Of a stretch of DNA of 49,933 nucleotides, positions 37,170 through 49,933 are shown one piece after another (the first letter of the stretch is position 1; each line of letters opens with the position of its first letter). Source of the stretch: a bacterium (lineage in GTDB: Bacteria > Eisenbacteria > RBG-16-71-46); assembly GCA_043779265.1 (NCBI GenBank), contig JAYWEM010000016.1:1-49933 (forward strand). The letters are read 5' to 3'. The notes beneath the pieces were generated by a model. It was not told where the DNA came from. It did not search any database and saw only the letters and a list, made by a program, of their open reading frames with translations. Position numbers and translations under genes: made by a program.

Positions 37170-40100
37170 ATGCGATGCTTTCGACGGGATCGAGCGCGCT
37201 CCGGCGTGCTCGCGAGTCTTCTACTGGCCGCCTTCGCACCTTGGGCGGTTGCGGCTCCGTGTATCACCCAGCTCAATGTCGGCATCACCCATGGCTCGGG
37301 GAACACCCCGCAGGCCGTGGCGCTGGGCGATCTCGACGGCGACGGCCGACTCGACGCCGTCCTCGCCAATGGCAGCGCCAACACGTTCACCGTGCTCAAG
37401 GGTATCGCGGGTGGCGGTTTCGCGGCGGCGACCAGCATCGCCTCCGGGGTCAATCCGCGCTCGCTGACGCTCGCCGACCTCGATGAGGACGGCAGGCTCG
37501 ACCTGCTGCTCGGGACGACCGGTGGGATCCAGCACTGGCGCGGACTCGGTAACGCGACGTTCACGCTCGTGGCGACGCTCGACGCCGGAACGTCATCTCG
37601 CTCGATCGTCGCCGCGGACCTGAACGCCGATGGCGTACTCGATGTGGCCTCCGCCAACGCCGCCGCCAACGAAGTGCAGGTGCTGATCGCGAATGGCTCG
37701 AACGGCGTCCCCACCGGAGGCTTCGCAGTCGCTGTCCGTTACGCGGTGGGGAATTCACCGGCCCGACTGCTGGCGTGCGATGTCGATGGCAACGGCGCAT
37801 TGGACCTGGTGAGCGCCGACAACTCGGGCGGCACCGTGTCCGTGCTGCGCGGCCTGACCTCGGGCGGCGCTCCGAACGGTGCGTTCGCCGCCTCCGTACG
37901 CACGACCCTGGGCGGCAACCCTTCGGGCCTCGCCCACGGCGACGTGGACTCCGACGGGCGACTCGATCTGTTGGTGACGCATGGTGGCGGCAGCACGCTG
38001 CACGTCCTCCACGGCCGCGCGAGCGGTGGATTCACGATCGCCTCCTACCCGACGCCGCTCACCGCTCGCGAGTTGGCGCTCGCGGACGTGGACGGCGATG
38101 GCATCGCCGACGCGATCATGGTGTGCGCTGCGACGAATCAGATCGCCGTGCTGCCGGGCACCTCGGGCGGCGGCTTCGGCGCCGCTCGCACGTGGGCCAC
38201 TGGCTCATCCCCCACGGCTCTTGCAGTGGCCGATCTGAACGGCGACCTGAGGCCGGACGTCGTCGTCGCCAACACCGGCACCGCGACGCTGTCGCGCTTC
38301 ATGGGCGGATGCGCCGCGAATGCCGATGCCACGCTGAGCCTGCTCTCGCCGGTCGGAGGCGAGCCATGGTGGCCCGGACTGCCGCAGCGTGTGAGCTGGC
38401 AGAAGGGCGCGGCCGTCACGGCGGTCGATGTCGAGCTGTCGAGCGATGGCGGCGTCACGTGGCAGCCCTTGGCCACGTCCGTGCCCGGTACCACCACGAT
38501 GGTCGTCGCGCCGCCCCCGATCAGCGGCGATGCGCGGGTGCGCGTACGCGACCGTCACGTCCGGACACGCATGGCCTCGAGCCCGGCGCCGTTCGATGTC
38601 TGCGGTCTCCTCGCGGGCCCGGTCGAGTCGCCGGCCGGTCTGCTCGGCGCGACAGGTATGATCGCCGCCGACTTCGATGACGATGGCGTGCTCGATGCCG
38701 CACTCGCCAACTCGACCTCGATTTCCGTGGTGCGAGGGACCGGCGGCGGCAGCTTCGCCGCATGGGGCAGTGTGGGCGCCTTGGCGCCGCGCGCCCTCGC
38801 CGCAGCCGATCTCGACCGAGATGGTCGTGCCGACCTTCTGTCGCTCGAGGGCACGCGATTGATCATCCGCGCGGGCGGCGAGATGAGTGAAGGCTCGAGC
38901 CAGGCGATCGAACTGTCGGTCTCCGGCAGGGGGCTGACCATCGCCGATCTCGATCGCGACGGCGATCTCGATGTGGCGATCGTGACCGGCGATGCGGGCA
39001 GCGGGTCACTGCGAGTCCTGCTGGGCGATGGCGCGGGCGGTCTCGTGCCCGGCCCCGTTCAAGTGCTGAGCGCGCCGGGCGCGCGCGTGCTGGCGGCCGA
39101 CCTCGACTCGGATGGCTCGATCGAGTTGACCTTGACCACATCGTCGACGCTCGAAGTGTGGCGATTCGTCGCAGCCACCTGGGTCCCGGTCAGTGCACGA
39201 CTGCTGGCGGCTCCGGTCGGCGATCTCGCATGGGGCGACTTCGACCGCGACGGCCGGCTCGATCTGGCCGCCTGTCTCAGCGTGACCGGCGACGTCTGGC
39301 GGTTCCGCGGCAACAACACACTCGGCTTCGATGCGCCGAGCGCGTTCCATGCGGGCAACGGCCCCGCGCATCTGAGTGCCACCGACTGGGATGGTGATGG
39401 ACGCACCGACCTCGTGCTCGGCTCGAGCGGGGCCGCGGGCGTCGCGATGCTGCTTGGCGATGGCAGCGCGCCCGCCAGCGCGGGCACGTTCACGCCGGTC
39501 GAGCGATTCGGCGACGTGGCGACGAGCGGTGCGGCGATGCTGATCGCCGATCTCGATGGCGATCGCGCGCCCGACGTGCTGCTCGCGACGGCGGATGGCC
39601 GCATCGAGACGCGACCCTCGCCGTGCGCCCCGCAGCAGGCGGACACGCTGGCGTGGACAGGTCCCTCGAACTCGCTTGGTTCCGTCGATCCGGGTACCGA
39701 GATCGTTCTCGGCTGGACGCGCGGTCCTGCCGTGTCCCTGGCCGCGATCGAGCTGTCGCGAGACGGCGGCGAACACTGGGAGACGCTGCAGCCCGCGAGC
39801 GCCGGATCGCAGTGGCGATGGACCGTACGAGGGCCCGGCACCAGCAAGGCGATGCTCCGCGTCAGGGATGCCGTCGTCCAGGGTCGCCGCGCGGTGAGCG
39901 CGATGTTCGCCATCACCGGACCGGCGCTGGAGGTCGAAGCGCCCTCCTCGCGCACACTCGCTCTCTCGGCGCCCTGGCCCTCCCCCACTCGTGCTGGCGT
40001 GCAGCTGCGACTGTCGCTGCAAACGCCGGGCGACGTGCGCGCGGAACTCGTCGATCTGCAGGGACGCGTCATCCGTGTACTCGAGGACGGCGTTCTCGCA

Positions 40101-40229
40101 GCGGGAGGCCACTCGATCGGCTGGGACGGCCTCGACGCGAGTGGCTGCCGTCCGCATCCGGGCGTTCTGTTCGTGCGCGTGGCCGCGGGGGGCGAGAGTC
40201 TGACGAGGCGCGTCGTCGTGATGAGGTAG
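37170..40229 (+). CDS. Secreted FG-GAP/VCBS repeat protein with Ig-like domains and C-terminal FlgD-Ig/T9SS-like domain
   Basis: About 12 xDxDxDGxxD repeats in two blocks, each block followed by an Ig-like module containing 'ELSxDGGxxW'. CTD 'DLQGRVIRVL...WDGLD...GVLFVRV...RRVVVMR'. Confidence 0.88.
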   Translation: MRCFRRDRARSGVLASLLLAAFAPWAVAAPCITQLNVGITHGSGNTPQAVALGDLDGDGRLDAVLANGSANTFTVLKGIAGGGFAAATSIASGVNPRSLTLADLDEDGRLDLLLGTTGGIQHWRGLGNATFTLVATLDAGTSSRSIVAADLNADGVLDVASANAAANEVQVLIANGSNGVPTGGFAVAVRYAVGNSPARLLACDVDGNGALDLVSADNSGGTVSVLRGLTSGGAPNGAFAASVRTTLGGNPSGLAHGDVDSDGRLDLLVTHGGGSTLHVLHGRASGGFTIASYPTPLTARELALADVDGDGIADAIMVCAATNQIAVLPGTSGGGFGAARTWATGSSPTALAVADLNGDLRPDVVVANTGTATLSRFMGGCAANADATLSLLSPVGGEPWWPGLPQRVSWQKGAAVTAVDVELSSDGGVTWQPLATSVPGTTTMVVAPPPISGDARVRVRDRHVRTRMASSPAPFDVCGLLAGPVESPAGLLGATGMIAADFDDDGVLDAALANSTSISVVRGTGGGSFAAWGSVGALAPRALAAADLDRDGRADLLSLEGTRLIIRAGGEMSEGSSQAIELSVSGRGLTIADLDRDGDLDVAIVTGDAGSGSLRVLLGDGAGGLVPGPVQVLSAPGARVLAADLDSDGSIELTLTTSSTLEVWRFVAATWVPVSARLLAAPVGDLAWGDFDRDGRLDLAACLSVTGDVWRFRGNNTLGFDAPSAFHAGNGPAHLSATDWDGDGRTDLVLGSSGAAGVAMLLGDGSAPASAGTFTPVERFGDVATSGAAMLIADLDGDRAPDVLLATADGRIETRPSPCAPQQADTLAWTGPSNSLGSVDPGTEIVLGWTRGPAVSLAAIELSRDGGEHWETLQPASAGSQWRWTVRGPGTSKAMLRVRDAVVQGRRAVSAMFAITGPALEVEAPSSRTLALSAPWPSPTRAGVQLRLSLQTPGDVRAELVDLQGRVIRVLEDGVLAAGGHSIGWDGLDASGCRPHPGVLFVRVAAGGESLTRRVVVMR

Positions 40230-40492
40230 AGCGGGCAGGGCGCTCGAAGTCCGGACCATCGGGCGACAGCGGGCGCGTCCTCGTGCAATCCGCACGGGCG
40301 ATGGGCGCACCCACCGCGAGCGACGGCCGAGCGTCCTCGCAACTCCTTGCCGGGCCGCACCGGCTGGCCGGCGGCGCCACATCCGGAGGTGGCGGCCCTC
40401 TGGCATCCACCTTGCAGCCATCGAGGCCGCGTCATCGCCCGCGCGCGTTCGTTGGCGCCGGAGCGGCCCCCGACCACCTTGAAGAGGACCTC

Positions 40493-41296
40493 ATGACCTC
40501 ATCGCCCTTTCGCACCACCTGCCTCTCCCTGATCCTCGCCGCGACGCTCGCGGGTTGTGGCGGCAGCAGCAACACCGCCCCCGCATCGATCTCGCAGCAG
40601 CAGGCGAGTGAGGTGGCGCAGCAGGTCGCCGCACTTCTGTTCCTGGGGCCCAACCCCACCAGCGTCCCGTCATCCTTCACGAGCCCTGCCGATCGCGCCG
40701 ACCACACCGGCATGAACATGCACCGGCGTGGCAGCCTCGGGCCGATGGCGGTGCGTGCCGAGTCCGACCTGTCGTGGTCGTTCGACGTGCGCTGGTACGA
40801 CGCGAGTGGTGGGGAACAGTTCTGGTACGACTCCACGACGACAGCGCGAGTGGTGACCGACCAGACGGCGCGAGGTTCCTATTCGGGCGAGGGCTACACC
40901 GCCACGATGGGCCACGCCGGCCATGTCGATCTCGCGGGGCTGCTCGCCTCGCAGCCGCAGATCATCGTCAGCGCGACGCGCAACGACACGCTCGATGCCG
41001 CCTACTCCGGCATCCAGGGCGAGGCCCAGCTCTCGCTCAAGTGCTCGGGCGCCTACGCTCAGGTGAGCCGCCTCAAGCCGCTCGAGGAGAATCCGCATCC
41101 GTCGGCCGGCACGGCGAGCTGGTCGATCGTCGCGCATCGCGCCTTCCAGAACGGACAGGGCTCGCACGCCCAGAACTTCAATACGTCGGTGCTCGTGACG
41201 TTCAACGGCACGCGATTCGTGCCGCTGGTCGTGAATGGGCAGTGGCACTACACGCTTGACCTCGAGACCGGACAGGTCACGCCCGTCTCGGTCTGA
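40493..41296 (+). CDS. Hypothetical lipoprotein
   Basis: GAGG RBS; lipobox LAGC after a hydrophobic stretch (MTSSPFRTTCLSLILAATLAGC); beta-rich mature region; followed by a terminator. Confidence 0.8.
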   Translation: MTSSPFRTTCLSLILAATLAGCGGSSNTAPASISQQQASEVAQQVAALLFLGPNPTSVPSSFTSPADRADHTGMNMHRRGSLGPMAVRAESDLSWSFDVRWYDASGGEQFWYDSTTTARVVTDQTARGSYSGEGYTATMGHAGHVDLAGLLASQPQIIVSATRNDTLDAAYSGIQGEAQLSLKCSGAYAQVSRLKPLEENPHPSAGTASWSIVAHRAFQNGQGSHAQNFNTSVLVTFNGTRFVPLVVNGQWHYTLDLETGQVTPVSV

Positions 41297-41309
41297 TCCA
41301 CGCCGCGTT

Positions 41310-41351
41310 CGACGCCCGCGCGAGCCCTTGCTCGCGCGGGCGTCGTCGTTT
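41310..41351 (+). terminator. Intrinsic terminator after the lipoprotein gene
   Basis: 16-bp perfect stem CGACGCCCGCGCGAGC/GCTCGCGCGGGCGTCG with CCTT loop, followed by TCGTTT. Confidence 0.8.
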
Positions 41352-41416
41352 CCCCCCGCCTCACCTATAGTGCGCGCGTGCCGCAGGGACCATCCCTTCA
41401 CCGAGGAGACCCCGTC

Positions 41417-42445
41417 ATGCGCCGTCACTCGCCGCGGTTCGCCGCGCTCGCACTCGCGTGCCTCTGCCTCCCCGCGCCCGCCGCATCGGTCGTGCCTCCG
41501 GGCGCTTCCCCGCAATCGCTCGCGCACACGTACTCGATCGTCGCGCGCGATCCGGCCACCGGCGAACTCGGCGTGGCCGTGCAGTCGCACTACTTCTCCG
41601 TCGGACCCATCGTGCCGTGGGTGGAGCCCGGCGTCGGCGCCGTCGCGACGCAATCGCTCGTGCTCGTGGACTACGGCCCGCTCGGACTCGCGCTGATGCG
41701 CCAGGGATTCACGGCTCGCCATGCGCTCGACTCGCTGCTGCGCGCCGACGAGCATCGCGACGGCCGACAAGTGGCGATGGTGGATGCCGCGGGCGGCGTC
41801 GCCGCCTACACGGGACCCATGTGCATCCCCGATGCCGGCGACTTGCAGGGCGCGCAGTTCAGCGTTCAGGGCAATCTGATGAGCAACGCCACGGTGTGGC
41901 CGGCGATGAAGACGGCGTTCGAAGCCGCCAAGGGCGATCTCGCCGAACGCATGATGGTGGCGCTCGAGGCGGCGGAGAGGGCGGGCGGCGACATCCGCGG
42001 GCGTCAGTCCGCCGCGATGGTGGTGATGAAGGGAACGCCCAGCGGCAAGCCATGGAACGACTACCTCGTGAATCTCCGTGTCGAGGATCACGAGGAACCG
42101 CTCAAGGAGTTGCGCCGACTCCTGCGACTGCGGCGCGCCTACAACTTCGAGGACGAGGGCGACGCCCACACCGCGGCCAAGCGGCCGGTCGAGGCGGGAC
42201 GCGCCTACGCCGAGGCGGCGAAGTTGGCACCCGATGTGGTCGAGTTGCAGTTCTGGGCGGCGCTCAGCATGTACACGAACGGGCAGGAGAGCGAAGGTCT
42301 CGCGCTGTTCCGCAAGGTGTTCGCACGCGAGTCGCGGTGGATCGACTTGATCCCGAGGCTCGCCAAAGCGGGGCTGTTCCCGGACGACGCCAAGAAGATC
42401 GCCGAGGTGCAGAATCAGAAGCCGAGGGGCCGCACGCTGCGCTGA
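41417..42445 (+). CDS. Secreted DUF1028 (Ntn-hydrolase-like) protein with C-terminal TPR-like region
   Basis: GAGGAG RBS; signal peptide then TYSIVARDPATGELGVAVQS, GVGAVATQS, QGNLM, GGDIRGRQSAA and LRVEDHEEPLKELRRL motifs. Confidence 0.9.
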   Translation: MRRHSPRFAALALACLCLPAPAASVVPPGASPQSLAHTYSIVARDPATGELGVAVQSHYFSVGPIVPWVEPGVGAVATQSLVLVDYGPLGLALMRQGFTARHALDSLLRADEHRDGRQVAMVDAAGGVAAYTGPMCIPDAGDLQGAQFSVQGNLMSNATVWPAMKTAFEAAKGDLAERMMVALEAAERAGGDIRGRQSAAMVVMKGTPSGKPWNDYLVNLRVEDHEEPLKELRRLLRLRRAYNFEDEGDAHTAAKRPVEAGRAYAEAAKLAPDVVELQFWAALSMYTNGQESEGLALFRKVFARESRWIDLIPRLAKAGLFPDDAKKIAEVQNQKPRGRTLR

Positions 42446-42458
42446 TCGCTCGCGTGGC

Positions 42459-43607
42459 TCAGGCGCCGCAGGAGTCGCGGCGCTGCGTCTTCAGGCCATC
42501 GAGGAACTCGAGGATGCGGGCGACGGAGCGTTCGTGGGAGTGCGTCTCCGAGACGCGCTTGCGACCGGCGAACCCGATCGTCGCAGCAAGCGAGGGGTCG
42601 CGCGCGATCGCACTCAGCGCGGCGCCCAGTGCGCCGACATCCCCCGGCTCCACGAGCAGGCCCTCCTGCCCGGAGCGGATGAGGCGCTTGGTGGCCGACG
42701 TCGCCCCGGCCACGACGGGGCGCCCGATCGAGAGCGCATCGATCACCTCCTGGGGACGGACCGAGCCCTCATCGCGGGTCGGCACCACGACGATCGCGTC
42801 GCACAGTGCGAATACGCGCGGCTGTTCCTCGGCCGGGACCGCGCCGCACAGCATCAGGCCGACGTTCACGCCCGACGCGCAGCGCAGCATCTCATTGCCG
42901 CCCAGCGCGTCACCGACCCCGACCAGGCGGATTCGGACCTGCGTTCGGATCGAGCCGGCCGCTTCGATCAGCGTCAGCAGGTCCTCGACTGCGACACCGG
43001 CCGCCGAGAACCCCACCCGGAACTCAGCCGATGCGAGCCGAAGATGACGAAGGCCGGCCTCGATGCGGCTCTCCGGATCGCTCCGCAGCAGTTCGAACGG
43101 GACACTGCCCGGATCGATCATCGTGGCGTGCTGCTCCGGTGCCCGAGCGCGTACCCAGTCCGCGACCGATTCGCTGTCGCAGATCGAACCCGCGCTCGCG
43201 GCGAACCCCTCGCGCAGGTCGGCGCGAACGCCGCGACCATCGAGGGATTCGAGGGCGCGCGTCCGAGCGCCCTGCACTTCGTAAAAGTGTGGCACGCCGA
43301 TCTCGGCACAGGCACGAGCGCCGTGCGGCGCGTCGGGTCGCCATTGCTCGATCACCAGGTCCGGCAGCACGTGCGAGAGATGCCAATCGATCTCCCGTTC
43401 GCTGACGGGCAGTCGCAACACTCGAGTCTCGAGTCCCCGCTCGCTGAGCGAGGCGAAGCCCGACGCAGGGCCGGCATCCGGGAGCAGCGCCGTCACCGAG
43501 TGCCCCCCCGACAGCCACGCTCCCGCCTGCGCCCGAAGGTGCATCGCGGCACGCTGCGGCCCGGCCAATGCATGACCGGGGTCGACACTGAGGAGGGTGA
43601 TGCGCAT
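42459..43607 (-). CDS. Glycosyltransferase family 4 (GT-B fold), divergent
   Basis: GGAGAG RBS and ATG 43607 (MRITLLS), GHSVTAL, 'ALSIGRPVVA...EGLLVEPGDVGALGAAL...GRKRV' GT4 C-terminal domain. Confidence 0.8.
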   Translation of the reverse strand: MRITLLSVDPGHALAGPQRAAMHLRAQAGAWLSGGHSVTALLPDAGPASGFASLSERGLETRVLRLPVSEREIDWHLSHVLPDLVIEQWRPDAPHGARACAEIGVPHFYEVQGARTRALESLDGRGVRADLREGFAASAGSICDSESVADWVRARAPEQHATMIDPGSVPFELLRSDPESRIEAGLRHLRLASAEFRVGFSAAGVAVEDLLTLIEAAGSIRTQVRIRLVGVGDALGGNEMLRCASGVNVGLMLCGAVPAEEQPRVFALCDAIVVVPTRDEGSVRPQEVIDALSIGRPVVAGATSATKRLIRSGQEGLLVEPGDVGALGAALSAIARDPSLAATIGFAGRKRVSETHSHERSVARILEFLDGLKTQRRDSCGA

Positions 43608-43668
43608 GGGCTCTCCGACCGGGCGGGGATTCCGTCGGCCAGGCGGGTGTCCCCCGCCGGCTCCATCA

Positions 43669-43697
43669 AGAGGTGGGAACTGGCCCTCGCCTGATAC
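43669..43697 (-). promoter_or_regulatory. Putative ECF-sigma promoter for the glycosyltransferase (GTATCAG-N15-CACCTCT, copy 1)
   Basis: Minus strand reads GTATCAG GCGAGGGCCAGTTCC CACCTCT, ending about 60 nt before ATG 43607. Same arms and spacing as the copy at 44347-44375. Confidence 0.65.
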
Positions 43698-43748
43698 ATG
43701 CGCCCGACTTCGACGGACTTCCCGGGCGGGCGCTAGAGTCCTCCTCCC

Positions 43749-44459
43749 ATGGCCTCCCCTCCCGGAAACCTCGACCCCGATCTCGATGCGCGCCTCGTGG
43801 CGCGCTGTCAGGCAGGCGAACCGAGAGCCTGGGAGGCACTCGTCCGCCGCCACCAGCGGCTCGTGTGGAGCGTCTCGCGCTCCTATCGGCTGTCCGATGA
43901 GGATGCCGGGGACGTGTTCCAGGAGGTGTTCGCCGCGCTGATCCGATCGCTCGCTCGCCTTCGAGACGGGAGGGCCCTGGTGCGCTGGCTCAGCGTCACG
44001 AGTGACCGGCTCGCGCGAACCGCCGCGGTGCGGAGTCGCCGCGAGCAGGCCATGAATCGCTCGTCCGATGACCCAGCCGGAAACGCCTTCGAGCGATTGG
44101 CCGCATCCGATGAACCGATCGGCGCCGATCTCGAGCGCCTCGAGCGCGAGGCCATGGTGCGACTTGCGATGGGCGCGCTCTCGGATCGCTGCGTGCGGCT
44201 GCTGCGCGCCCTCTACTACGAGGACCCGACGCCCGGCTACGCCGAACTGTCCGAGCGGCTCGGAGTCCCGATCGGATCTCTGGGGCCGACGAGGGCCCGT
44301 TGTTTCGACAAGTTGCGACTGTCGTTCGTTTCGATCTCGAGCGGAGGTATCAGCGGAGGGCTCGACGCCACCTCTCTCAACGAGCAAGAGCCCCGCGGCG
44401 GAACGCCCGAGCGCGGCGGTAGCCCCAAGCGTGCCCATTCCGAGGAGGCCGCCGGATGA
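43749..44459 (+). CDS. ECF-type sigma-70 family RNA polymerase sigma factor
   Basis: Region 2 'AWEALVRRHQRLVWSV...DAGDVFQEVF...WL', region 4 'LSDRCVRLLRALYY...YAELSERLGVPIGSLGPTRARCFDKLR', then a low-complexity tail. Confidence 0.93.
   Translation: MASPPGNLDPDLDARLVARCQAGEPRAWEALVRRHQRLVWSVSRSYRLSDEDAGDVFQEVFAALIRSLARLRDGRALVRWLSVTSDRLARTAAVRSRREQAMNRSSDDPAGNAFERLAASDEPIGADLERLEREAMVRLAMGALSDRCVRLLRALYYEDPTPGYAELSERLGVPIGSLGPTRARCFDKLRLSFVSISSGGISGGLDATSLNEQEPRGGTPERGGSPKRAHSEEAAG
44347..44375 (+). promoter_or_regulatory. Putative ECF-sigma promoter internal to the sigma gene, driving anti-sigma/CHAT (copy 2)
   Basis: GTATCAG CGGAGGGCTCGACGC CACCTCT, located in the sigma tail after region 4 and 80 nt before ATG 44456. 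Confidence 0.65.
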
Positions 44460-45064
44460 AGCGTCACGACCGCGACGCCCATCTCGACACGCGAATCGCG
44501 CTCGACCTGCTCGAGCATCGGCTCGATGCCGAGAGCACGAAACGGATCGAGGCCCACCTCGCCCGCCCGTGTCCCGCCTGCCGTGAGCAGCTGAGGCGCA
44601 TCGGCGATCTGGTGGCGACGCTGCGAGCCGATCGCGGCGCCGAGGTGCCCGAGTCGCTCACGCTTCGCGCGCTGTCGGTGTTCGAGCCAAGTCTCGAACA
44701 GCCGCCACACGAACATCCGCTGGCGGGAATCGTGCGCCTGTTGTTCGACTCCCTCGACGCACCGCTGCCGGCCGCCGCCAGGCGATCGGTCGGCGAGGCA
44801 AGGCGGCTGCGCTATGCCCTGGGCGATGCGGAACTCGAACTCGAGATCGATCGCGATACGCGCTCGACCATGACGTTGCGGGGCCGACTCGGCGCCGTGG
44901 ATGCAGCACTGTGGTCGATCCGCGCCGAGACGCCGGGGGAGTCGCGAGCCACCTCACCCGATGCGGCCGGCTCGTTCCTGATCGCCTCACTGCCGGCCGG
45001 CCCCTGTCAGCTGCATCTGGAGGGACCCGGCGGCAGCTTCCGCATCCCGGATCCGTCCCCATGA
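44456..45064 (+). CDS. Soluble zinc-finger (zf-HC2/ZAS-like) anti-sigma factor with C-terminal beta-sandwich
   Basis: ATGA overlap with the sigma gene and GGAGG RBS; H-x(24)-HLARPCPAC motif; no TM helix; C-terminal beta-rich, carboxypeptidase-regulatory-like segment (PDAAGSFLIASLPAGPCQLHL). Confidence 0.75.
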   Translation: MKRHDRDAHLDTRIALDLLEHRLDAESTKRIEAHLARPCPACREQLRRIGDLVATLRADRGAEVPESLTLRALSVFEPSLEQPPHEHPLAGIVRLLFDSLDAPLPAAARRSVGEARRLRYALGDAELELEIDRDTRSTMTLRGRLGAVDAALWSIRAETPGESRATSPDAAGSFLIASLPAGPCQLHLEGPGGSFRIPDPSP

Positions 45065-47766
45065 GCGCCACGGAGCTACTCGCCGAGGTCGAGGGCATCC
45101 GTCGGGCCGAGCCCGCTCGCGCGCTCACCACTCTGGAAGCGGGCTTCGCCGCCGCATCGAGGCGCGCCGAACCCGCTGAGCGCGCCCTGCTGTGGCGGAC
45201 CCGCGCGCATGTGCTGCGCAGCCTGCGGCGCACTCGCGAAGCGGTGAATGCCTATCGCCGCGCCGCTGCCGCGTTCCATGCAGCGGGCGATGCACGCGAG
45301 GAAGGGCGCTGCGCCATCGGCCTCGTCGACGCGCTGATGTACCTGGGGCGTCACGCCGAGGCACGGCGGGCTGCCTCGAGAGGCCGCCGCCTCCTGACGC
45401 GCGTCGGCGATGACGCCGCCCTGTCGAGGCTTCTGAACAACGAGGGCAATCTCTGGCATCGCCTCGATCTGCCCGAGCGTGCGCTCGAGTGTTACCAGGC
45501 GGCGGTGAGCGGGCTCGAGCGTGCGGGGGACCTTCGAAGCGCGCGCATGATCGGCGTGAACGTGGGCAACTGCCTGTCGCTCCTCGGACGACTCGACGAG
45601 GCGAGGCGCCACTATCGAGAGGCGCAACGCGCCCAGCGGGCCGCGGGCGCGCTCAACGAGGCGCTCTCGGCGGCGTACAATCTCGCCTACCTCGACTTCC
45701 TCGAGCATCGATCGGAAGCCGCGCTCGAAGGGCTCGAGGCGGTGCGGATCGAAGCGGAAGCCCGTGCCTATCCCTCACTCGCCGCGCTCGCGCGGCTCGA
45801 CCGCGCCGAGATCTTTTTGCGCCTGGGTGCCCATGAACAGGCGCTCGAGGAAGCCGAGGCCGGTGTCACCGCGTGCGACGCGCTCGGGCTCGGCTACGAG
45901 ACGGCCAAGGCCGAGTTGTTCGCCGCGCTCGCGTGCTTCCGCCTCTCGCGGCGTGAGCGCGCCCGCAGCGGGATCGAGCGTGCGCTCACGCGATTCGGCG
46001 CCGAGGGCAACGAGGTGTGGACGGGCGAGGCGCTGCTCGGCCTGGCCACGCTATGGCGCGAGGACGGCAACGCGCCCGCAACCGCGGTGCTCCTCTCGGC
46101 TGCCAGGCGACGCTTCGCCGAGGCCGGCGATCGCGAGCGCGAGGCTTGCGCCGCTACACTCGAGGTGCGAGCCAGGCTCGATGCCGGCGAGCCCTCGGCC
46201 GCTCGCCGACTGATGGCGCGGGCCGATCGACGCCCGCCCAAGAACCCGAGCGCACGGCTGCAACATCTGACGCACGGCGCGCGCGCCGCGTTGGCTCGTG
46301 CCGCCGGCGACGTGCCGGCCACGAGGCGATGGCTTCAACTGGCCGCCACGCAATCCGAGCGACTGGCGGCACGCATCCTCGATGAGGAGTGGCGTGCGAC
46401 GTTCTGGGGGGACTGGGGCTGGCCGCATCGCGAACTGGCGCTGCTCGAACTGGAGCACGGCGATCCGGAGGCCGCGTTCGATGCACTCGAGGCGGGCCGG
46501 GGTCGGACGCTGATCGGGCGCTCCTCGGTGCGAGGAGCGAGCGGTCACGCGCTGCCGGCCGCCGTCCGGCGATGGACCGCGGCGCGGCAGGCGCGTGAGC
46601 ACGAACCCCGCCGCACCGCGGAGGCGAGTGCGGGATCGGCTCTGCGAAGCGTGCTCGCCCACCGCGCACCGCATCAGGTGACGGCGTCGAGCCTTCGGCG
46701 CCTGCTCGACGATGACACCTTGCTCGTGGACCACCTGACTCACGCGGGCGTGATCGGTGCCATCCGGTTGTCGCGCCGCGGCGCGCAGGGAGTCGCCCGA
46801 CTCGCACGAGAGGAGCACGTCTCGCGTCTGACCCACGAGGTGCTGTTCGCACTTCGAAGCGCCGCCTTCACGCCACGTGCATCCCGGCGGCTCGATCCAT
46901 CGCTGGTCGATGCGCTCACCGAGTTGAGCGCGCTCACCTTGTGGCCGCTGCTGGGCGAGGGGGTTCCCGCTTCGATGGTGCTCGCACCCACCCATGCACT
47001 CGCGCGCCTGCCATGGGCCGCACTGCCGCTCGCGGATGGACGTGTCCTCGCGCAGAGCACGGCGCTGGTGATCGCTCCCGGACTCCGCTCCGTGATGGGC
47101 GCAGCGAGGGAGACGGCGGGCGGACCGGGACTGGTCGTCGCAGTCGATACGGGGGACCTGGCGGCGATCGAGGCCGAGACCGCATCGGTGATCGCGTCGT
47201 TCCCGGGTGCGCACGTGCTCTCGGGCAGTGAAGCCACCGTCGCGCGATTCCGCGAGCTCGCCCCTCGGGCCGGCTGGATCCACTTCGCCGGGCACGGCGC
47301 ATTCCGCGCCGATGCGCCGGAGCGCTCGGGCCTGAGGCTCTTCGATCGTTGGCTCCTGAGCACTGAACTCGCCGCCCTTCGTCTGAGCGCCCGCTGGGTG
47401 ACGCTCTCGGCCTGTCAGACGGCGCGCGCGCTGGTGCGGCCCGGCGAGGAGTGGTTCGGATTGTCCCGTACGCTTCTCCTGGCCGGCGCCAACGCCGTGG
47501 TGGCGGCCCAGTGGGATGTCGAGGACGCCTCGACCGCCCTGCTCATGGAGGGGCTCTACCGGCGTCTGGCGACGGGAGCCGATGTGCCCCGAGCGCTCGC
47601 GGCGGAACAGGGCGAGAGGGCCGCCTCGGGCGAACACCCGCTCGATTGGGCTGGTTTCGTGACGCTGGGAGGGCCACGGGCGCTCGGCGCCTCGAGGTCG
47701 GCTCGCCCCCGGAACTTGCCCCGGAACCGAAATTCACCCGCGCGCCGCAAGCGCCGAATCCCCTAG
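45061..47766 (+). CDS. TPR-CHAT caspase-like (clan CD) cysteine protease
   Basis: ATGA overlap with the anti-sigma; long N-terminal TPR array; intact dyad HFAGHG (His 47293-47295) and LSAC (Cys 47413-47415); LPWAAL, GEEWFGLSRTLLLAGA, QWDVED and HPLDWAGF motifs. Confidence 0.93.
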   Translation: MSATELLAEVEGIRRAEPARALTTLEAGFAAASRRAEPAERALLWRTRAHVLRSLRRTREAVNAYRRAAAAFHAAGDAREEGRCAIGLVDALMYLGRHAEARRAASRGRRLLTRVGDDAALSRLLNNEGNLWHRLDLPERALECYQAAVSGLERAGDLRSARMIGVNVGNCLSLLGRLDEARRHYREAQRAQRAAGALNEALSAAYNLAYLDFLEHRSEAALEGLEAVRIEAEARAYPSLAALARLDRAEIFLRLGAHEQALEEAEAGVTACDALGLGYETAKAELFAALACFRLSRRERARSGIERALTRFGAEGNEVWTGEALLGLATLWREDGNAPATAVLLSAARRRFAEAGDREREACAATLEVRARLDAGEPSAARRLMARADRRPPKNPSARLQHLTHGARAALARAAGDVPATRRWLQLAATQSERLAARILDEEWRATFWGDWGWPHRELALLELEHGDPEAAFDALEAGRGRTLIGRSSVRGASGHALPAAVRRWTAARQAREHEPRRTAEASAGSALRSVLAHRAPHQVTASSLRRLLDDDTLLVDHLTHAGVIGAIRLSRRGAQGVARLAREEHVSRLTHEVLFALRSAAFTPRASRRLDPSLVDALTELSALTLWPLLGEGVPASMVLAPTHALARLPWAALPLADGRVLAQSTALVIAPGLRSVMGAARETAGGPGLVVAVDTGDLAAIEAETASVIASFPGAHVLSGSEATVARFRELAPRAGWIHFAGHGAFRADAPERSGLRLFDRWLLSTELAALRLSARWVTLSACQTARALVRPGEEWFGLSRTLLLAGANAVVAAQWDVEDASTALLMEGLYRRLATGADVPRALAAEQGERAASGEHPLDWAGFVTLGGPRALGASRSARPRNLPRNRNSPARRKRRIP

Positions 47767-47797
47767 ACTCGTGCGACACCCTGAGGAGGTCTCCCCC

Positions 47798-49126
47798 ATG
47801 CTCCGCCGCTCGTCCCTGCTCTCCATGCGCCATGCGCTCGCTCTCGCGTGCGCCGCGCTGATCGCCGCCTCGGGCTGTGGCAGCCCGATCGCCACCGCGC
47901 CACAGCGCTCGGCCGAGCCCACGCACTCGAGCGCGCCGAACGTCATCGAAGATGTGTCGGCCGAGGTCGTCGTCACCCTTGCCGAGGGTGTGAGCGCCTA
48001 CTACGTGGCCTACGACTTCTCGGCCACGCTGATCGAGTGGGAGAAGGACGAGCGCTGCGCCAAGTTCATCCCGCAGGCCGGCCAGCCGCGCGAGAAACTC
48101 GCCTACCTGCTCTCGATGGACCCGCGCTGCGAAACCGTGGACCTCAACACCTACATCGAGGAAGTCGAGACGCGCCAGCAGAGCTTCGCGTTCGATGACG
48201 GCATTCCCGGCGTGCAGCCCTACCTCGAGCAGGCGGCCGCACGCGCACTCCGGCTCGAGGCCGCGCACTTCGTCACGCGGGGCCGTGGCGTCCGAGTCGC
48301 CATCATCGACACCGGCGTCGATGCGACGCATCCCGCGCTCGCCGGCCGAATCCTCATGGGGCGCGACTTCGTCCAGGATGACGACGATCCGACCGATGTG
48401 GTCGATGGTGTCGATCAGGATGGCGACGGGCTCGCCGACGAGGCCTTCGGTCACGGCACGCACGTGGCCGGATTGGTGTCGCTCACCGCTCCCGAGGCGC
48501 CGCTGATGATCGCGCGCGTGCTGGATGCCGACGGTCGTGGCGATGTGCTCGATGTGGCGGCCGGGATCCGCTGGGCCACGCGCAACGGCGCCCGCGTCAT
48601 CAACCTGAGCCTCGGCACGCTCGATGAGATCGCCGCCGTTCAGAAGGCGCTCGAAGAGGCCGAGGCCCTCAACATCGTCGTCGTGGCATCCGCCGGCAAT
48701 CGCGGCAGCGCGATCCCCGAGGAGTACCCGGCGCGTTCGAACAACGCGCACGCCGTGGCCGCCACAGACGCCGACGCCCGCCCCGCGCCCTTCACCTCGT
48801 ACGCACCCTGGGTCGCCATCTCCGCCCCCGGCGTCGCGGTGCGCAGCGCCTATCCGGGTGGCGGCTATCGCCTGTGGAGCGGCACCTCGATGTCGGCGCC
48901 ATTCGTCGCCGGGGCCGCGGCCCTCGTGATCGAGCGCCATCCGAGCTGGACGTCCGATCGCGTGATGGGTCGTCTGCGCTGGACGACGCGTCCGATCCAG
49001 GGCGCCAGCGCGGAGCAACAGGGCATGCTGGGCCGCGGCATGCTCAATGTGCTCGCGGCGGTTCGCGCCGATCATGTCCGCGCCGGACCGGGTGAGGGTG
49101 ACGAACCCACGGACGGAGTCGAGTGA
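47798..49126 (+). CDS. S8 subtilisin-like serine peptidase, predicted lipoprotein
   Basis: GAGGAGG RBS; lipobox-like LIAASGC; triad IIDTG, HGTHVAG, SGTSMS; oxyanion SAGN. Confidence 0.93.
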   Translation: MLRRSSLLSMRHALALACAALIAASGCGSPIATAPQRSAEPTHSSAPNVIEDVSAEVVVTLAEGVSAYYVAYDFSATLIEWEKDERCAKFIPQAGQPREKLAYLLSMDPRCETVDLNTYIEEVETRQQSFAFDDGIPGVQPYLEQAAARALRLEAAHFVTRGRGVRVAIIDTGVDATHPALAGRILMGRDFVQDDDDPTDVVDGVDQDGDGLADEAFGHGTHVAGLVSLTAPEAPLMIARVLDADGRGDVLDVAAGIRWATRNGARVINLSLGTLDEIAAVQKALEEAEALNIVVVASAGNRGSAIPEEYPARSNNAHAVAATDADARPAPFTSYAPWVAISAPGVAVRSAYPGGGYRLWSGTSMSAPFVAGAAALVIERHPSWTSDRVMGRLRWTTRPIQGASAEQQGMLGRGMLNVLAAVRADHVRAGPGEGDEPTDGVE

Positions 49127-49893
49127 CGCAAGCCACGGAACTCCCGGCGCACGGTGATCGCTACCGCTGGACGACGATCGCGCACGCCCAGCGCACGCTG
49201 CTCGGACCGATCGCCGCCGAGGTCATCGCCAGTCTGATGGGGAGCATCGAGCGATCCCCGCTCGCCGTGCTGGACGTCGGCTGCGGCCGCGGCGCCATGC
49301 TGGTGGGCGCGATGGTGCGGTTCGGCGCCAGTGGCGTCGCGGTTGAACCCAACCCGCACTTCGCGGCAGCGGCACGCGCGCTGGCCGAGGCAGGCGGCGT
49401 CGCCGACGCACTCATAATCCACAACGCGGAGTATGCGCCGAGCCTGCTTGTTCGCGAGCGCTTCGGCCTCGCGATGTGCATGGGTGCGACCGGTGCCTTC
49501 GGCGGTTACTCCGGCGCGCTCTCGGGGTTGCACAAGATCGTCGAGCCCAGCGGGTACGCCATGATCGGCGAAGGCTGTTGGCGCCGGGAACCCGCGACCG
49601 AGTATCTCGCCGTGCTCGGTGCATCGCGAGAGGACATGGCCCAGGAGCCCGAGACGAGAGCCGCCGCCGAAGCCGCGGGGTGGCGCGTCGTGCGTTCGCA
49701 CTTGAGCACGGTCGCCGAGTGGGATGGCTACGAGGACGCCTACGCCGGTTCGATGGCCGAGTGGCTGAGCGAGAACTCGCGCGACCCCGATGCCGCGGGC
49801 TTTCGCGAACGACTCGAGCGCTGGCGCAATGCCTACCTCGACCACGGTCGCGACACGCTCGGTTTCGCCACGTACCTGCTCGAGCGGCGCTGA
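49123..49893 (+). CDS. Class I SAM-dependent methyltransferase
   Basis: VLDVGCGRG motif I, 'GATGAFGG', 'PSGYAMIGE' and C-terminal RDTLGFATYL. GTGA overlap with the S8 stop. Confidence 0.88.
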   Translation: MTQATELPAHGDRYRWTTIAHAQRTLLGPIAAEVIASLMGSIERSPLAVLDVGCGRGAMLVGAMVRFGASGVAVEPNPHFAAAARALAEAGGVADALIIHNAEYAPSLLVRERFGLAMCMGATGAFGGYSGALSGLHKIVEPSGYAMIGEGCWRREPATEYLAVLGASREDMAQEPETRAAAEAAGWRVVRSHLSTVAEWDGYEDAYAGSMAEWLSENSRDPDAAGFRERLERWRNAYLDHGRDTLGFATYLLERR

Positions 49894-49933
49894 GGCCCAC
49901 GAGAGAGGGTCGGGGGGGGGGGGCCCCCCCCCC

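Follow-up and report, generated by a model that had tools for sequence, protein, structure and literature searches.

The locus described here raises the question of what reads two copies of a bipartite motif, GTATCAG-N15-CACCTCT, one inside the 3' end of an ECF sigma gene and one on the opposite strand ahead of it, and which genes the two copies serve. An initial annotation had taken them for the -35 and -10 elements of this sigma factor, which would then induce its own inhibitor, a protease and a glycosyltransferase rather than itself. We examined this proposal in the window, by which we mean the whole stretch of 49,933 nucleotides analysed, and in related genomes. The window is one whole contig of a 3.43 Mb genome (68% G+C, 92% complete), and its features are listed in Table 1.

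Table 1. Positions of the predicted promoters and genes in the window.
Feature	Position	Strand	Remarks
GT4-type glycosyltransferase, 382 aa	43607-42459	-	target of site 2
Site 2, predicted start	near 43662-43664	-	about 55 nt before GT4 ATG (43607)
Site 2, ECF-type promoter (predicted), divergent	43697-43669	-	faces GT4 gene
Site 2, -10	43675-43669	-	
Site 2, -35	43697-43691	-	
Housekeeping-type -10 hexamer TAGAGT of the sigma gene	43734-43739	+	9 nt before sigma ATG
ECF sigma factor, 236 aa, ECF54-like	43749-44459	+	recognition helix GSLGPTRARC
Site 1, ECF-type promoter (predicted)	44347-44375	+	inside sigma 3' tail, just past sigma-4, facing the 202-aa gene
Site 1, -35 GTATCA(G)	44347-44353	+	followed by a 16-nt spacer counted after GTATCA
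Site 1, -10 CACCTCT	44369-44375	+	predicted start G44382, 74 nt 5' of the anti-sigma-like ATG
Predicted soluble anti-sigma factor (+1 protein), 202 aa	44456-45064	+	start overlaps sigma stop
TPR-CHAT caspase-like protease, 901 aa	45061-47766	+	His/Cys motifs intact; no clear membrane segment
S8 subtilase, 442 aa	47798-49126	+	D/H/S motifs intact; N-terminal hydrophobic stretch ending in lipobox-like ASGC
Class I SAM methyltransferase	49123-49893	+	overlaps S8 stop

A pattern scan returned exactly two exact matches in the window, at 43697-43669 (minus strand) and 44347-44375 (plus strand), where the initial annotation had placed them, with identical arms and 15-nt spacing. Its by-eye count of two was also borne out: with spacers of 13-17 nt allowed there are still only two window matches, compared with none in 100 shuffles, and a scan of the whole genome for the exact motif found the same two copies and no others. 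Because the motif had been picked after it was seen, we ran a look-elsewhere control, counting any gapped 7+7 repeat in order-2 Markov resamples of the 861-nt region. Such repeats arose in 42 of 300 resamples, and repeats as AT-rich as the real one (at most 8 G+C of 14) in none (0/300 resamples, 0/57 window tiles). The copies are largely identical, as had been claimed, with 22 rather than 20 of 29 positions in common on recount. The GAGGGC at the same spacer offset, which had been counted as part of the motif, is a coincidence, occurring in the spacer of 3 of 105 distinct sites from relatives. A third functional element in the spacer was rejected; spacer columns carry little information in a 115-site matrix built from relatives.

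The sigma family was found by search in 88 of 206 genomes of the phylum. Our ortholog comparison covers 37 close copies at ~53-74% identity, 33 of them taken from 32 fetched regions and 4 from short loci. The equivalent tail site is present exactly, as GTATCA-N16-CACCT, in 33/37 and in all 37 by a looser pattern written after variants had been seen, so that the check proposed in the initial annotation, a motif scan of the genome and homologous loci, came out in its favor. The divergent site is exact in 26/37 and loose in 32/37. None of the 37 copies has a site facing the sigma gene, and autoregulation of sigma from its own motif was rejected on this basis. Extra copies occur before the S8 gene in two ortholog loci and before a second GT4 gene in one.

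In a wider set of 122 sigma rows, near-duplicates included, drawn from this phylum, the phylum of a Terriglobia genome (presumably Acidobacteriota) and four actinobacterial records, a related site was called automatically just downstream of sigma-4 in 95, using a caller for which the third -10 base had to be C and the second A or T. Fifty of these sites are in the coding tail. Another 39 are entirely downstream of the stop codon, and in 6 the stop falls within the -35 or spacer, which places the constraint on the DNA. Manual correction of 11 rows after inspection added 7 sites, replaced 2 and removed 2, giving a site in 100/122 rows and in 65/87 among rows at ≤50% identity. Eleven of the 22 rows that have no site retain the Thr of the recognition helix unchanged.

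Co-occurrence with the sigma factor extends beyond the locus. In family f1, the 35 genomes with an ortholog (one holding it only as a fragment at a contig end) contain 121 matches to GTATCA-N16-CACCT compared with 9 for reversed controls, and each has at least one, although part of this co-occurrence follows from the position of the sites around the sigma gene. The 51 genomes that have no ortholog contain 10 matches compared with 16 for reversed controls, and the three with only a distant sigma homolog contain no exact match. About 58 of the 121 matches, by hand count, are outside the sigma locus. Among those listed, we fetched 52 regions, which hold 53 extra-locus sites found by pattern alone. 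Most are 50-150 nt before the start of a same-strand gene, and about six look intragenic. These sites, which include orthologous targets and hence are not independent, have T at motif position 29, two bases past the pattern, in 47/53 (background 0.15) and a pyrimidine-purine step at positions 35-36 in 35/53 (background 0.28). Genuine promoters show such a T and start signature, by the published passage on ECF promoters (PMC7776599). The sites share the consensus (G/T)GTATCA(G/C)-N15-CACCTnT, with a free spacer and a last T that was no part of the search pattern. The start positions of both window sites were inferred from the pyrimidine-purine enrichment in relatives' sites, which puts them near 43662 and at G44382, in agreement with the 43660 (minus strand) and 44382 (plus strand) expected in the initial annotation.

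We scanned 27 proteins downstream of extra-locus sites, and Pfam named 15. These include S8 proteases, BNR/Vps10 and other FlgD-tail secreted proteins, GT2, a sugar transferase, a TonB-dependent receptor, a transglutaminase-like protein and a radical SAM enzyme of the KamA family. A conserved 375-aa protein follows the motif in four genomes of one genus (L111, L113, L114, L127); the two of the four that were scanned matched nothing in Pfam or NCBIfam at the chosen thresholds. The motif also precedes an Ala-rich protein of 106-107 aa that matched no family, in three genomes (L118, L122, L126), with two tandem occurrences in G128. When the 115-site matrix was applied to the window's own genome, the two local sites scored 32.8 and 29.8 bits and the next matches 19.6 and 18.8; these next-best matches have a broken -35, and no gene start was seen nearby. 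The regulon of this genome appears reduced to the two local sites.

The sigma gene seems to be served by a different kind of promoter. The housekeeping-like TAGAGT pointed out in the initial annotation is present at its place, and TAnnnT occurs 4-22 nt before the sigma start in 31/37 orthologs compared with 8/481 upstream control windows. A full sigma-70 scan, which needs a -35, misses TAGAGT, as no good -35 accompanies it. The window sigma gene has no ribosome-binding site before its ATG, and a Shine-Dalgarno-like motif precedes the sigma start in 1/37 orthologs. Given a TAnnnT so close to the start and this near-absence of ribosome-binding motifs, a leaderless or near-leaderless sigma transcript is likely. 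The divergent ECF promoter and the housekeeping promoter lie back to back in the window (43697-43739), and in four orthologous loci (L037, L056, L057, L061) the divergent ECF -35 is only 18-41 nt from the sigma start and overlies the housekeeping promoter. With this overlap in several orthologs, polymerase occupying the divergent promoter could silence sigma transcription.

The sigma factor is of the ECF type (group 4), short and with sigma-2 and sigma-4 only; Sigma70_r2 and TIGR02937 match above cut-off, and its profile aligns along RpoE/AlgU. Residues ~195-236 form a variable C-terminal tail that reads through promoter site 1. Across clades the -10 differs at constant spacing (CAC, GAC, TAC, GTC, CTC, TTC). 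Covariation was measured over 70 rows, the window's clade having been reduced to 5 of them. The second -10 base is best predicted by residue 63, which aligns to RpoE K56, and the first -10 base by residue 91, which aligns to RpoE N84 (1or7 chain numbering with an inferred offset of 3). Todor et al. tied these same RpoE positions to these -10 bases, in the passage concerned (PMC7776599). K/R63 accompanies T at the second -10 base in 18/18 rows, with 13 further rows having T and no K/R at this residue, and N/D91 accompanies G at the first -10 base in 34/36. The window sigma has Ala at the K56 position instead of Lys/Arg, which fits CACC rather than CTCC. The raw covariation is confounded by kinship, and the kin-corrected tests are underpowered: supported branches yield no more than 2 and 4 independent pairs, none in the opposite direction, with p 0.25-1. 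Other -35 positions gave no interpretable covarying sigma column, and six sigma rows with SP(L/M)R have GTCT(C/T)T as -35. We take the residue-base covariation as support, not proof, of the sigma-promoter pairing.

A change in the -35 can be followed within a single genome. In G109, one paralog has PNRARC in place of PTRARC. Its tail carries GTACGA-N16-CACCT, a second copy of which stands 82 nt ahead of a glycosyltransferase gene, and the neighboring PTRARC copy keeps GTATCA. The locus (L055; G109:C8:11691-23113) consists of two tandem sigma-antisigma-CHAT-S8 cassettes, the second being the PNRARC cassette with both of its sites reading GTACGA-N16-CACCT, and this second cassette is likely a natural orthogonal sigma/promoter pair. 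Across the G109 genome GTACGA-N16-CACCT is not enriched (3 matches compared with 12 controls), and only its placement is telling.

The +1 protein has an N-terminal helical His/Cys zinc motif of the ZAS kind, with residues H9, H34, C39 and C42 invariant. Its spacing, H-x4-C-x2-C, is presumably one residue longer than in the usual ZAS motif. The structure model (pLDDT 81) contains four N-terminal helices and a beta-sandwich, the C-terminal domain being Ig-like/CarboxypepD_reg-like. Orthologs match zf-HC2 (10/34) and CarboxypepD_reg (15/34) weakly, below Pfam cut-offs, and the window's own protein has no zf-HC2 match in the profile scan. The +1 profile matches the ZAS-type anti-sigma chains 3hug_B (E 0.0016), which we take to be RslA, the anti-sigma of SigL, and RsiW (E 0.026). 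Foldseek gave no match at E 0.001 or better, with ChrR at rank 9 (E 0.02), and a wide fold search was filled by the Ig-like domain and barely probed the N-terminal domain. These features suggest that the +1 protein is probably a soluble zinc anti-sigma of this sigma. In the low-confidence interdomain linker, residues 97-118 (44744-44810) contain an invariant FDS and a near-invariant RR-x-VGEARRL, a candidate protease site or docking motif.

The two proteases that follow keep their catalytic motifs and would act in different compartments. The CHAT His/Cys motifs are present in 21/21 loci reaching the CHAT domain and the S8 catalytic motifs in 21-22 of 22 loci, and by hydropathy and inspection CHAT looks cytoplasmic and S8 exported. 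CHAT would thus be the only protease of the locus able to reach the sigma complex. The genome has eleven CHAT-domain matches in 3.4 Mb, one of which adjoins this sigma; with ten others present, the neighboring CHAT need not be the trigger and could be an output only. The methyltransferase is probably the last gene of the induced operon here, and a homolog lies downstream in 5/32 fetched ortholog regions (L037-L068). On the other strand, the GT4 gene is likely monocistronic, since it converges on a DUF1028 gene. The divergent gene in orthologs mostly encodes a glycosyltransferase-like protein, and the GT4 family is divergent among them (~30-50% identity). The window GT4 has QEVIDALSIG where relatives carry PLKLVEAMAAG-like motifs, and it may be catalytically atypical.

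Conservation, co-occurrence with the sigma, promoter hallmarks that were no part of the search and the residue-base correspondence all argue that the motif is a -35/-10 promoter, very probably read by the neighboring ECF sigma, as the initial annotation proposed. Its further claim, that the sigma induces the anti-sigma, CHAT, S8 and GT4 genes and not itself, is likewise supported, as the sites face those genes and 0/37 face sigma. On these sequence comparisons we consider this wiring highly likely, and the circuit would run as follows. The sigma would be made at a basal level from its housekeeping, near-leaderless promoter, and the overlapping stop and start would couple its synthesis to that of the zinc anti-sigma, so that it stays bound. 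The anti-sigma would be removed in response to a signal, for which the TPR region of CHAT is the probable sensor, plausibly by CHAT itself in analogy with the CASP system (PMC10028731, in the part describing that switch). This CHAT or proteolytic trigger is the least supported step and is put forward tentatively. Freed sigma would then act at the internal promoter, so that anti-sigma, CHAT and exported S8 increase, and at the divergent promoter, so that GT4 does; envelope or matrix genes would be raised as well, and sigma itself would not. The extra anti-sigma would end the response.

A different ending is conceivable, in which the motif is again the promoter of the sigma, the +1 protein is not a classical anti-sigma, and CHAT and S8 are outputs or degrade the sigma, giving proteolytic shut-off instead of re-sequestration. 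The ECF54 description has no anti-sigma and names proteases as possible regulators ('regulated by proteolysis'), as far as that entry goes (PMC7826278), and PCaspase cleaves its sigma directly (10.1101/2023.06.23.546230). The +1 protein of the actinobacterial locus L078 (153 aa) also aligns only to the C-terminal half of the window's +1 protein, with 26% identity over 88 aa. Set against this are the four His/Cys residues in ZAS-like spacing, invariant in 34/34 rows, the matches to ZAS-type anti-sigma chains and the stop/start overlap with the sigma gene, which together make purely proteolytic shut-off unlikely.

The motif could instead be bound by another conserved regulator of the locus and of scattered genes, either a different sigma or a transcription factor, and the sequence-only pairing of sigma and motif, together with the non-significant kin-corrected covariation, leaves some room for this. 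The motif, however, is non-palindromic and bipartite with a fixed 16-17 nt spacing and a start signature; its ~58 extra-locus matches (hand count) are found only in genomes with the sigma, and its changes follow sigma changes within G109, so that such a regulator is very unlikely. Still more remote is the idea that an encoded peptide or a role as RNA element explains why the tail copy is kept, with the second copy there by chance. Although 50/95 sites are in the coding tail, in one frame among close orthologs, 45/95 are wholly or partly non-coding, the motif codons are rare here (TCT 3/225 Ser, GGT 43/328 Gly), and the second copy is intergenic, on the opposite strand and kept in 32/37 orthologs. 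An Rfam search of 40000-49933 found no match.

With the motif read as the promoter of the neighboring sigma, the closest described group is ECF54. Its published entry (Casas-Pastor et al. 2021, PMC7826278), in the portion on this group, gives an entirely actinobacterial (100%) membership with a carboxypeptidase-regulatory-like gene, a subtilase and TPR-CHAT as neighbors, no anti-sigma, and a predicted GTATCAG / CTCC promoter upstream of the ECF operon. The window locus resembles that portrayal in its CarboxypepD_reg-like +1 gene, its subtilase and TPR-CHAT neighborhood and its GTATCAG -35. It differs, on the same partial portrayal, in its -10 (CACC(TnT), one base from the predicted CTCC), in its host (Candidatus Eisenbacteria, as for the named close homologs), in the position of its sites (downstream of sigma-4 and on the divergent strand), and in a +1 protein with a zinc site and an S8 protease that looks exported. 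Nonomuraea locus L078, which has the ECF54 context, carries GTATCAG-N14-CTCTCTG before an S8-sigma operon, an autoregulatory layout, and the sigma-4 G-P and R positions are invariant in 120/120 homologs of its sigma. A related sigma on a Streptomyces plasmid (L080, CP042595.1) is followed directly by GTATCC-N16-CTCTGTT and then by a gene that by eye looks P450-like, within what appears to be a biosynthetic cluster; 14.5 kb of sequence contained neither a CHAT nor an S8 match. In the search for further actinobacterial ECF54 loci with DNA context, the metagenome and viral scans each yielded a single weak locus, a pattern scan none and plasmid searches nothing new; since these scans added no good loci, the DNA comparison rests on L078 and L080.

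In a maximum-likelihood tree where ECF54 is represented by L078 (full context), its homologs and two Streptomyces plasmid sigmas, with no curated members, the 13 actinobacterial-type rows group on a branch of their own (88/97), which does not include the 6-row clade of the window. Holding the two together as one clade was not rejected (p-AU 0.278). The window sigma departs from ECF54 in host, clade and -10 but works like it, which places it in a wider ECF54-like group. ECF58 of the Planctomycetes, a neighbor of ECF54, was set aside as an identity, having a different context and no predicted promoter.

The wiring of the circuit has precedents in other sigma groups. The non-autoregulated layout described in the initial annotation stood, and its supposed unusualness did not: about half of ECFs are not predicted to autoregulate, in the survey passage cited (PMC7776599), and Corynebacterium glutamicum sigH-rshA is wired the same way. 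As excerpted, the study of that system (PMC3489674) describes sigH and rshA as co-transcribed from housekeeping promoters, one with the -10 TAGAGT, and a sigma-dependent promoter 62-66 nt before the rshA start, proposed to give fast shut-off. A housekeeping-driven sigma gene and a sigma-dependent anti-sigma promoter are thus common to both. Within the same excerpt (PMC3489674), sigH-rshA differs in its sigma group, GGAA/GTT promoter and redox/heat trigger, in having no CHAT/S8 protease or divergent glycosyltransferase, and in being experimental where the window circuit is predicted. In the sections consulted, the CASP and DdvS/DdvA systems, like the window, link a TPR-CHAT protein to an ECF sigma and inhibitor (PMC10028731, PMC11506125). 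In CASP-sigma/Csx30/Csx29 of type III-E CRISPR, inhibitor cleavage frees a sigma whose sites lie in its own locus (PMC10028731). As far as those sections go, the window inhibitor differs in being a small ZAS-like/Ig-like protein, the targets are envelope and secreted proteins, and cleavage is predicted only. No Cas7-11 or CRISPR link stood out among the scanned neighbors of the window locus.

The -35 GTATCAG is already known as the published ECF54 prediction, and so is the circuit type; neither promoter nor circuit is new in kind. What the window adds is probably a variant of the ECF54-like promoter, in Candidatus Eisenbacteria and next to a likely zinc anti-sigma. The publications consulted describe neither the -10 variant nor a site downstream of sigma-4, and they mention no zinc anti-sigma candidate, regulon or paralog swap of this kind. 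ECF54-type loci have been catalogued from sequence alone, and literature searches turned up no experimental study of one. We also entertain, as a doubtful extension, that a CRISPR-independent caspase-gated switch in at least three phyla forms one ECF54-like superfamily with a shared GTAT(C/T) -35 and clade-specific -10s, in which TPR-CHAT would cut a small zinc anti-sigma and the freed sigma would drive inhibitor and protease together with a regulon comprising glycosyltransferases, secreted proteases and secreted FlgD-tail proteins, with paralogs having re-coded sigma and promoter together into orthogonal switches.

Outside Actinobacteria, a search restricted to the sequence ahead of the sigma gene would overlook this promoter, since its place is downstream of sigma-4. 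The locus offers an exact promoter with predicted starts, a candidate anti-sigma unrecognised by the classification and a candidate protease trigger, and a natural sigma/promoter swap is available in which Thr-to-Asn goes with GTATCA-to-GTACGA. The predicted regulon would provide a first handle on a stress or envelope response in this uncultured phylum.
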